Positions 6,949 through 7,419 of a stretch of 15,752 nucleotides of DNA are shown piece by piece; position 1 is the first letter of the stretch, and the number at the start of each line of letters is the position of its first letter. A program made the position numbers and the translations under genes. The DNA is from a virus. The notes beneath the pieces were generated by a model. That model was not told where the DNA came from and ran no database searches. It worked only from the letters and a program-made list of their open reading frames with translations. Where the stretch lies: IMG/VR virus record IMGVR_UViG_3300032156_000932; one strand, written 5' to 3'.

Positions 6949-7419
6949 CTAGGGCTCGGTGACCTCTTCGAAGTCCTCTCCCAACATGTCCGTCTGGCTG
7001 GCGAGCCACGGAACGAGATCGCCCTGGGCGGTCTTCATGAAGATGTACGGCAGGGTCATCTTCGAGTTCACGTCCGGCTTCTGGAGGGCGATCCACAAAC
7101 CCTTTCCGTTCCAGCCGGCCCTGCGGAACTTCTTCCCCGGGAACGCCTTCAGCTCGCGGACGACCGTGGCGAAGTCGACGGGCGTGGGGGAGTCATCCCC
7201 CGTCCAGTTGAGCTGCTCGCAGTTCACGGTGCCGACCCCCTCGGAGGTCTTCGTGGCATCCGCGAGCGCGAGGTTCGGAACGCCGAACTCGACGCGGCCG
7301 GGGCCGGGGGGATCGAACAGCCGGAAGACCGACCCCCTCTTGATGGCCTCGAACTCCGCCGGCTCCCACTTGCCCGTCTGGGTGTTCAGGATGTCGCACT
7401 GACGCTGATTCTTCTCCAT
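6949..7419 (-). CDS. DUF2829-family protein (the domain of Tad2, a phage Thoeris anti-defence protein), 156 aa
   Basis: C-terminal FRRAGWNGKGLWIALQ...MTLPYIFMKTAQGDLVPWLASQTDMLGEDFEEV matches the DUF2829 hallmark ...WNGK...PW(L)ASQ(T)D(L)LAEDWE. GAGGT RBS upstream. Confidence 0.65.
   Translation of the reverse strand: MEKNQRQCDILNTQTGKWEPAEFEAIKRGSVFRLFDPPGPGRVEFGVPNLALADATKTSEGVGTVNCEQLNWTGDDSPTPVDFATVVRELKAFPGKKFRRAGWNGKGLWIALQKPDVNSKMTLPYIFMKTAQGDLVPWLASQTDMLGEDFEEVTEP

Follow-up and report, generated by a model that had tools for sequence, protein, structure and literature searches.

The IMG/VR virus record IMGVR_UViG_3300032156_000932 is analysed here as one stretch of 15,752 nt (the window), which carries on its minus strand a gene for a Tad2-like protein of 156 amino acids (aa). 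Tad2 sponges form a large family that has already been studied in depth (~2,800 IMG/VR homologues), and one more member adds little by itself. The present gene is a new architectural variant of this well-known family. It is a genuine two-domain open reading frame (ORF) of a large uncultivated phage, in which a beta domain and a linker precede a C-terminal DUF2829 domain. Both peptides quoted in a preliminary description of the window (MEKNQRQCDILNTQTGKWEPAEFEAIKRGSVFRLFDPPGPG... and ...WNGK...PWLASQTDMLGEDF) are found verbatim in this ORF. The features of the gene and its product are the following:

6949..7419, minus strand: Tad2-like gene, complete ORF of 156 aa (from the N-terminus, beta domain, linker and DUF2829 domain)
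7426..7429, minus strand: GAGG motif of Shine-Dalgarno type, 6 nt before the Tad2-like ATG, read from the sequence
7210..7419, minus strand: N-terminal domain (N-domain), residues 1-70, a five-strand beta domain in the AlphaFold2 (AF2) model; translation-checked
7177..7209, minus strand: linker between the two domains (NWTGDDSPTPV, residues 71-81), flexible by prediction, with a block mean of 55 (residues 71-80) for the predicted local distance difference test (pLDDT)
6961..7176, minus strand: Tad2-like domain (PF11195), residues 82-153, from Pfam, PHROGs, PDB sequence matches, AF2 and Foldseek; translation-checked
7102..7116, minus strand: pocket motif 1, G102-W103-N104-G105-K106, equivalent to SPO1 W25/N26 and HgmTad2 W21/N22/G23 in the alignments to 8sme and 8kbi
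7051..7083, minus strand: minimal beta2-beta3 connection, residues 113-123 (QKPDVNSKMTL), seen as a gap when aligned by HMMER to 8sme, 8kbi and 8wjd
6988..7008, minus strand: pocket motif 2, W138-L-A-S141-Q-T143-D144, equivalent to SPO1 W73/S76/T78/D79 and HgmTad2 W87/S90/T92/D93
6966..7145, minus strand: patch diverging from the allele of a related phage contig (L001), within the Tad2 domain only, with 25 mismatches in 180 nt of the nucleotide alignment

The ORF runs on the minus strand from an ATG at 7419 to a TAG stop codon at 6949-6951. The identical 156-aa protein is called as a gene on two independent assemblies (contigs L002 and L003), and variants with 97% and 92% identity are encoded on the IMG/VR viral contigs L010 and L011 (212 and 205 kb). 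The fusion is thus no artefact of assembly or frameshift. The IMG/VR records of the 205-212 kb contigs are IMGVR_UViG_3300031952_000001 and 3300036761_001580. These contigs are the closest relatives and, together with the transfer-messenger RNA (tmRNA), the transfer RNA (tRNA) and the vault-protein homologue of the window, they indicate a phage origin. No ATG, GTG or TTG codon from which the Tad2 domain could be started separately occurs between residues 70 and 82. Therefore the two-domain fusion is obligatory, with an N-terminal extension of 81 residues. The fusion is confined to one phage lineage (roughly 205-212 kb) and was found in none of 185,579 bacterial species genomes. The nearest relatives of the C-terminal domain are found in Pseudomonadota; with a GC content of ~60%, this gives a weak hint as to the host.

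Residues 82-153 belong almost certainly to the Tad2/DUF2829 family. The preliminary description had seen the DUF2829 hallmark in the C-terminal half, and Pfam bears this out with a PF11195 match (E-value = 2.1e-19, 70.2 bits for a cut-off of 25) covering virtually the full profile (positions 2-73 of 73). PHROGs 1048 and 872 match the same domain. A phmmer search of the PDB sequences returned all solved Tad2/AcrIIA7 chains: SptTad2 (8wjd, E-value = 1.6e-9), HgmTad2/AcrIIA7 (8kbi, 7e-7), SPO1 Tad2 (8sme/8wje) and ModTad2 (9eib/8v3e), these four spanning E-values from 1.6e-9 to 5e-6, and the Phocaeicola dorei AcrIIA7 (pdAcrIIA7; 9kzr, 3e-5). The remaining rows of this search were two aldolase chains with non-significant E-values of 0.31 and 0.35. 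The AF2 predictions were made for monomers, the full-length alignment comprising 59 homologues of the N-domain and 5 of the Tad2 domain. The predicted elements (alpha1 83-92, beta1 97-103, beta2 106-112, beta3 124-129, beta4 135-138, a short helix 142-145, beta5 150-153) follow the order of Tad2, namely alpha1 and beta1 to beta5 with a short helix between beta4 and beta5. A Foldseek comparison of the AF2 model with the PDB, which the preliminary description had named as a check with 8SMG as a reference, yielded Tad2 structures for all of the top 20 matches (probability 1.00, TM-score on the target 0.54-0.68). These are the SPO1 structures 8wje, 8smg, 8smf and 8sme and the Myroides structures 8v3e and 9eib; 8smf and 8smg are complexes with glycocyclic ADP-ribose (gcADPR). 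The best matches are those of SPO1 Tad2 (E-value = 4e-4, probability 1.0, 30-36% identity).

SPO1 Tad2 (gp34.65; 8SME, 8SMF, 8SMG, 8WJE), from a Bacillus phage, is the founding Thoeris anti-defence 2 sponge. It shares with the present protein the PF11195 domain, the order of the elements and the residues W25, N26, T65, W73, S76, T78 and D79, all of which are conserved. It differs in being a single domain of 89 aa, whereas here a 70-aa beta domain and a linker are added N-terminally. Its beta2-beta3 connection is also 13 residues longer, with a helix alpha2 that is a dimer-packing element and carries F44. The highest sequence scores among the solved structures are obtained for HgmTad2/AcrIIA7 and SptTad2 (8KBI-8KBM, 8WJC, 8WJD), which are dual sponges of gcADPR and cyclic dinucleotides. 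Their GWNGKG and WLASQTDM motifs are identical to those of the present protein. They differ by an insertion that forms a pocket (R31, S47, F70, N85) for cyclic di-GMP (cGG) and cyclic GMP-AMP (cGAMP), and by having no N-terminal domain.

Amino acid residues that hold the ligand in the solved complexes can be followed one by one. In SPO1 Tad2 bound to 1''-3' gcADPR, W25 and W73 make van der Waals contacts and N26 and D79 polar ones; T78, I63 and T65 touch the adenine, and D67, H71 and S76 coordinate waters (bioRxiv 10.1101/2023.05.01.538930). In the HMMER alignments W25 and W73 correspond to W103 and W138, N26 and D79 to N104 and D144, T78, I63 and T65 to T143, M128 and T130, and D67, H71 and S76 to Q132, V136 and S141. 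The direct gcADPR contacts are all retained, with a conservative replacement of I63 by M128. M128 and V136 match the adenine-side residues M76 and V84 of HgmTad2. The HgmTad2 mutants W21A/N22A and S90A/T92A/D93A lose gcADPR binding (PMC10680739), and the five residues concerned are also conserved here. The WLASQTDM segment is the same as in the gcADPR binders HgmTad2 and SptTad2, and differs from the WTPSVSD of ModTad2, which binds histidine-ADP-ribose (His-ADPR) and does not block type I Thoeris. Among the 113 nearest homologues carrying both pocket motifs, 105 have GWNGK. Of five diverse Tad2 homologues that have been assayed, four inhibited type I Thoeris. Because the contacts are conserved, WLASQTDM is shared and most assayed homologues block type I Thoeris, binding of signals of the 3' cyclic ADP-ribose (3'cADPR) type is predicted. 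We predict that the ligands are ADP-ribose (ADPR)-type signals of Toll/interleukin-1 receptor (TIR) proteins and not cyclic nucleotides.

The connection between beta2 and beta3 bears on the second class of ligands. In HgmTad2 and SptTad2, a beta2-beta5 insertion of 35-41 residues forms the pocket for the cyclic dinucleotides cGG and cGAMP (PMC10680739), and the same interface of MoTad2 binds cyclic UMP (cUMP; PMC12393519). The long insertion that builds the second pocket of dual-specificity Tad2 proteins is lacking here: a connection of only 11 residues stands in for it, as it does for helix alpha2 of SPO1 Tad2. Because the beta2-beta5 insertion is absent, no cyclic-dinucleotide or cUMP pocket of the HgmTad2, SptTad2 or MoTad2 type is expected. 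The sequestration of other cyclic-nucleotide signals, which the preliminary description had ascribed to phage Tad2 proteins, is accordingly not upheld for the present copy, the pocket-forming 35-41 residues being reduced to an 11-residue loop.

A spacing of 36 residues from the G to the W of the two motifs is found in 112 of the 113 nearest homologues, in which the pocket motifs are nearly invariant. By sequence, the short loop defines a Tad2 clade. Its members include proteins of Acinetobacter phage XC38, Mycobacterium phage Curiosium (gp4) and Aeromonas phage Ahp1, as well as prophage-like loci of Dyella and Methylocella (proteobacterial prophages). Their Tad2 domains are 50-75% identical to the present one, with matching PDxxSKMTLPY loop and pocket motifs; in contrast, none of them possesses the N-domain of this protein. 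This insertion-less, minimal Tad2 clade is frequent among phages of proteobacteria and phages of high GC content, and appears structurally uncharacterised.

The preliminary description had also noted an extra N-terminal domain of about 60 aa, not typical of minimal Tad2. Such a domain is indeed present and predicted to be folded, but it is longer, with about 70 aa (residues ~5-70), and is followed by a linker of ~11 aa. As to its being atypical, this particular domain is unusual, whereas extensions as such are common: they reach at least 40 aa in 41 of the 113 nearest homologues, all of them unrelated to the N-domain here. The AF2 model has strands at residues 7-12, 17-21, 31-35, 48-51 and 67-69. 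Block means of pLDDT for residues 11-70 are 88-95 in the full-length model and 74-92 in a model of the domain alone (mean 81.5). The full-length two-domain model, with a predicted template modelling score of 0.49, gives no evidence of the two domains packing together. From these models the N-domain is predicted to be a separate, flexibly tethered module.

The N-domain belongs to a family of small proteins characterised by the motif W18, F23, F32-R33-L34-F35-D36, E44, G46, P48, A51 and C67. An exhaustive HMMER search with residues 1-82 against 1.8 billion representative proteins produced 15 matches at an E-value of at most 0.001. Twelve of them are small proteins (36-49% identity, mostly 64-84 aa), while the other three are long repetitive proteins regarded as artefacts. 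Homologues of 125, 126 and 160 aa bear short extensions. Profile searches enlarge the family to ~80 members of 63-163 aa (mostly 64-86 aa), none of which has a Pfam domain; the stand-alone phage proteins among them number ~60-80. The N-domain itself did not exhibit any match to Pfam, or by sequence to the PDB, and a structure search of BFVD returned only uncharacterised small phage proteins. No similarity was seen between residues 1-75 and Acb4 (PF13876), Sequestin (PF21825), Tad1, Acb2 or Lockin. The stand-alone N-domain genes lie on contigs of ~5 to 245 kb (three of more than 140 kb), in the neighbourhood of early, replication and nucleotide-metabolism genes. None was found beside a DUF2829 gene, either at six inspected N-domain loci or at ~70 Tad2 loci. 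One of them directly follows a Metallophos gene different from the one described below; two other candidates for such a neighbour showed no or marginal Metallophos similarity.

Among the solved DUF2829 proteins, only pdAcrIIA7 (9KZR) has an N-terminal extension before alpha1, and it is still a tetramer. Its head, acidic and flexible, has a modulating effect on the core activity. It is a two-helix head of 48 residues combined with an extended insertion, whereas the present protein has an unrelated all-beta domain of 70 residues and no insertion. Unlike the pdAcrIIA7 head, the N-domain is also a free-standing family.

The origin of the fusion can be approached through a more distant relative (contig L082), which shares with the window the gene order 76-aa gene, Zn-ribbon gene, Tad2-like gene, metallophosphoesterase gene, 189-aa gene and 77-aa gene. 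Its Tad2-like protein (P0002, 101 aa) has a domain 75% identical to the present one and no N-domain; the small gene upstream of it encodes the Zn-ribbon protein and not an N-domain. Therefore the N-domain joined a pre-existing Tad2 gene at a conserved locus. The comparison of the window with L010 reveals 4 synonymous and 0 non-synonymous substitutions in the N-domain, and a ratio of non-synonymous to synonymous rates (dN/dS) of ~0.33 in the Tad2 domain. From these counts, both domains are under purifying selection. As a side observation, P0002 (L082, 5513-5818) has GWNHPDQW in place of the near-invariant GWNGKG, with a His at the position of HgmTad2 G23, a diphosphate contact. Judged from these residues, the pocket of P0002 may have an altered specificity.

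Our preferred reading, to which we give a probability of roughly 60%, is that the protein is a tetrameric Tad2-type sponge for TIR-derived ADPR signals with a flexibly tethered accessory domain. What follows on the oligomer, its ligand, the inhibition of Thoeris and a function of the N-domain is inferred. By analogy with the solved sponges, the Tad2 domain would form a homotetramer through its helix alpha1 and its beta sheet. ADPR-derived TIR signals, most probably 3'cADPR (1''-3' gcADPR), would be enclosed in two pockets between protomers. The ligand would stack on W103 and W138 and receive hydrogen bonds from N104, S141, T143 and D144, and the Thoeris effector would be starved of its activator. 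The N-domain, drawn from a stand-alone family of large phages, would have become fused to an ancestral Tad2 gene whose immediate downstream neighbour encoded a metallophosphoesterase. As to its role, the N-domain would most likely either add a further activity of its own, host-directed or anti-defence and present in four copies per tetramer, or modulate the core in the manner of the pdAcrIIA7 head.

Several points weigh against this reading. The pLDDT of the C-terminal domain is only 61-74, a moderate value, the alignment being only seven sequences deep over that half. The V-shaped dimer of SPO1 Tad2 packs via helix alpha2, which is absent here, and the quaternary structure could differ. Two water-coordinating residues of SPO1 are replaced (D67 by Q132 and H71 by V136), and the alleles differ in the beta3-beta4 loop next to the adenine. 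The exact ligand is not readable from the sequence, because some Tad2 pockets are known to be retuned to His-ADPR and to N7-cyclic ADPR (N7-cADPR; PMC12393519). Finally, the N-terminal head of pdAcrIIA7 suppresses an activity of its core, and by analogy the bulky N-domain could likewise alter function.

A reading compatible with the proposed role of the C-terminal domain is that the N-domain is itself an anti-defence module, acting as a protein inhibitor or as a second sponge, so that a single polypeptide would counter two systems of the host. Fusions of Tad2 with other sponges are frequent; examples are Acb4-Tad2 of Pasteurella phage Pm86 and PF21825 (Sequestin)-Tad2, through which Sequestin was recognised as a new sponge family (PMC12265669). 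As in these sponge-sponge fusions, Tad2 is here joined to a short domain that is mostly stand-alone in phages. Sequestin is likewise of 60-80 aa, mostly stand-alone and phage-encoded (PMC12265669), and the N-domain family has a similar profile (short, stand-alone, on phage contigs, with no other recognised Pfam domain). The strong conservation of its aromatic and Arg-rich motif (W18, F23, F32, R33, F35) and the purifying selection on the N-domain point in the same direction. By the fusion logic that revealed Sequestin, the N-domain is thus a candidate new anti-defence module. However, the N-domain lacks any match to PF13876 or PF21825 and is all-beta, in contrast to the alpha-helical Sequestin. 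The fusion is limited to one phage lineage and not recurrent, whereas the known sponge-sponge fusions have recurred 60-90 times. Its net charge is about -4 (counted), while most sponge pockets are basic. On balance we consider a second anti-defence activity in the N-domain possible but doubtful.

The lead offered by this protein is that it ties an unannotated small-protein family of large phages, with no Pfam entry and no solved relative, to a proven anti-defence domain. What speaks for an anti-defence N-domain is the fusion itself, the profile of its family and the purifying selection, a support that goes as far as association. Two further facts documented at this locus are an allele mosaicism confined to the sponge domain and a conserved pair of Tad2 and metallophosphoesterase genes. 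Should the N-domain or the esterase turn out to counter immune signalling, huge phages would have a larger counter-defence repertoire than is known at present.

The mosaicism is apparent from the comparison with L001. By a sliding mismatch count, the N-domain and ~650 nt downstream are 100% identical between the window and L001. The Tad2 domain shows dS = 0.25 and dN = 0.087, both values being 0 for the N-domain. Eleven amino acids are substituted (V87I, A101S, L108M, F127Y, A131V, Q132G, G133D, D134Y, V136I, M145I, G147A), five of which lie in the beta3-beta4 loop (A131V, Q132G, G133D, D134Y, V136I). The ligand-contact residues are invariant in all three alleles despite these 11 substitutions elsewhere in the domain. 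The patch includes a three-base synonymous switch of a Ser codon. The mixed substitutions, and a dS of 0.25 against 0 in the flanks, indicate that a diverged allele was imported by recombination. A diversity-generating retroelement was rejected as the source of the patch, the substitutions being of all types and not adenine-specific. Across the three genomes, mosaicism of the sponge domain fits what is expected of an arms-race gene. A second patch of divergence from L001 occurs at 5526-5885, comprising the start of a 194-aa ORF (5228-5812) and its upstream region. Both patches show 10-30% nucleotide divergence within stretches of ~0.5-1 kb that are otherwise 100% identical, which looks like localised allele replacement.

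This variability also concerns the possibility that this member of the sponge family has another ligand, such as His-ADPR (type II Thoeris), N7-cADPR (type IV) or several signals, rather than 3'cADPR. The targets inhibited by Tad2 homologues are differing combinations of Thoeris (types I, II and IV), CBASS (cyclic-oligonucleotide-based anti-phage signalling systems) and Pycsar (pyrimidine cyclase systems) (PMC12393519), ModTad2 being an example that binds His-ADPR and spares type I. The adenine-side beta3-beta4 loop (131-136) is the most variable part between the alleles. Such a ligand is nevertheless unlikely in our view. The WLASQTD motif is the same as in HgmTad2 and SptTad2, ModTad2 differs at the equivalents of Q142 and T143, and most of the homologues assayed inhibit type I Thoeris.

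The sponge gene is flanked by the following two genes:

7423..7893, minus strand: Cys-rich upstream gene, 156 aa from M17 of a 172-aa ORF, with its stop 3 nt before the Tad2-like start
5895..6617, minus strand: calcineurin-like metallophosphoesterase gene, 240 aa from the Met opening the Pfam match (Metallophos, E-value = 3.5e-17)

The Cys-rich protein has no Pfam match and exhibits DnaJ-like CxxCxGxG motifs (CNYCKGGG, CRKCHGTG, CTPCRGTG). Its gene is present in L002, L003 and L010 (89% identity to L010) and cleanly absent from L001. Because its stop codon (7423-7425) sits between the GAGG motif and the ATG of the Tad2-like gene, the two genes are probably translationally coupled. They are probably also co-transcribed; promoter-like or terminator-like sites were sought on the minus strand from 5888 to 8700 and none was found.

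The metallophosphoesterase has intact metal-binding motifs (SDLH, GDITD, GNHD, MHH, GHEH). It shows a weak NCBIfam similarity to phosphodiesterases of cyclic AMP and of 2',3'-cyclic nucleoside monophosphates, and has no solved relative by sequence. The order of Tad2-like gene and metallophosphoesterase gene is kept in four related phage contigs (58-99% identity), with the esterase at 10746-11525 in L001, 6525-7247 in L010 and 5870-6589 in L082 (58% identical to the window copy), and also adjacent in L002. A general association of Tad2 with metallophosphoesterases was considered and rejected, as the adjacency is seen only in this lineage and L082, and not at ~70 other Tad2 loci. The two proteins may form a sequester-and-destroy pair, in which the esterase would hydrolyse ADPR-type or cyclic-nucleotide signals. 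This idea stands on synteny across phages with 58% identical esterases, and is supported to the extent of an association. The spacer of ~330 nt (6618-6948) between the two genes holds a 144-aa ORF (6508-6942, minus strand), which overlaps the esterase start by 110 nt and is not called as a gene in L001 or L002. The spacer is 100% conserved in L001 and absent from L010, where the Tad2-like and esterase genes are 53 nt apart.

The same pair of genes could be read as having no immune role at all, the DUF2829 fold providing a scaffold for tetramers or binding a housekeeping nucleotide in the service of phage metabolism, in concert with the adjacent metallophosphoesterase. It is true that the conserved pair lies among genes with no recognised anti-defence function. 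We hold this to be very unlikely, as the gcADPR-specific contact residues are fully conserved and all DUF2829 proteins characterised by experiment so far are anti-defence factors.

RNA binding has been described for another branch of the family. The AcrIIA7 tetramer binds trans-activating CRISPR RNA (tracrRNA) in a basic groove, for which K58, K66, K71, K93 and R101 (pdAcrIIA7 numbering) were tested (PMC13133391). This set of residues is not preserved in the present protein: the insertion holding K93 and R101 is missing, Ala101 (a Ser in L001) takes the place of K66, and the position of K58 is ambiguous owing to a 2-residue insertion in helix alpha1. Only K71 is clearly retained, as K106 of the family-wide GWNGK motif. 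AcrIIA7-type activity depends on the absence of an N-terminal head, whereas the 81-residue extension is obligatory here. Capture of tracrRNA or another structured RNA to block type II CRISPR-Cas, as the homology to AcrIIA7/HgmTad2 (8kbi, 9kzr) would suggest, is the least probable of all these readings, since the C-terminal domain has no net positive charge (10 K/R for 10 D/E, counted) and full-length, headed pdAcrIIA7 is inactive on Cas9 with an N-terminal domain smaller than the one present here.

The rest of the window contains the following features, all on the minus strand:

8652-11354, minus strand: Major Vault Protein (MVP) homologue, 900 aa (MVP_shoulder, E-value = 1.2e-29; Vault_3, E-value = 1.4e-8)
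11457-11533, minus strand: tRNA-Pro(TGG)
11795-12160, minus strand: tmRNA, complete (Rfam RF00023, 96.8 bits), with the tag peptide ADADVIPFPKMAVPSLQRAA given by ARAGORN
4087-4503, minus strand: 138-aa protein with a C-terminal DnaJ (J-domain) match below the cut-off (26.5 for 27.8 bits)
2625-3476, minus strand: DUF2786/DUF7168 protein
1401-1979, minus strand: GDSL-family esterase
459-1373, minus strand: 304-aa ORF lacking Pfam matches

MVPs of viral origin are known from a 2023 preprint (10.1101/2023.11.10.566534). In a comparison with 50,697 phage records, the vault homologue of the window matched only LR756500, LR756501 and LR756503, which are uncultured huge phages of 462-735 kb, with 42-44% identity over 74% of its length. 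The tmRNA and the tRNA are phage-borne translation-rescue genes, as in huge phages, and a gene for a peptide-chain release factor (PCRF/RF-1) is located at the end of the L082 contig. At the position of the 304-aa ORF, between conserved flanks, L001 carries a TnpB-like gene (15997-17121; OrfB_IS605 / Cas12f1-like_TNB), and the site at 459-1373 appears to be a variable insertion site. The J-domain, DUF2786/DUF7168 and GDSL genes are syntenic in L001 and L002.

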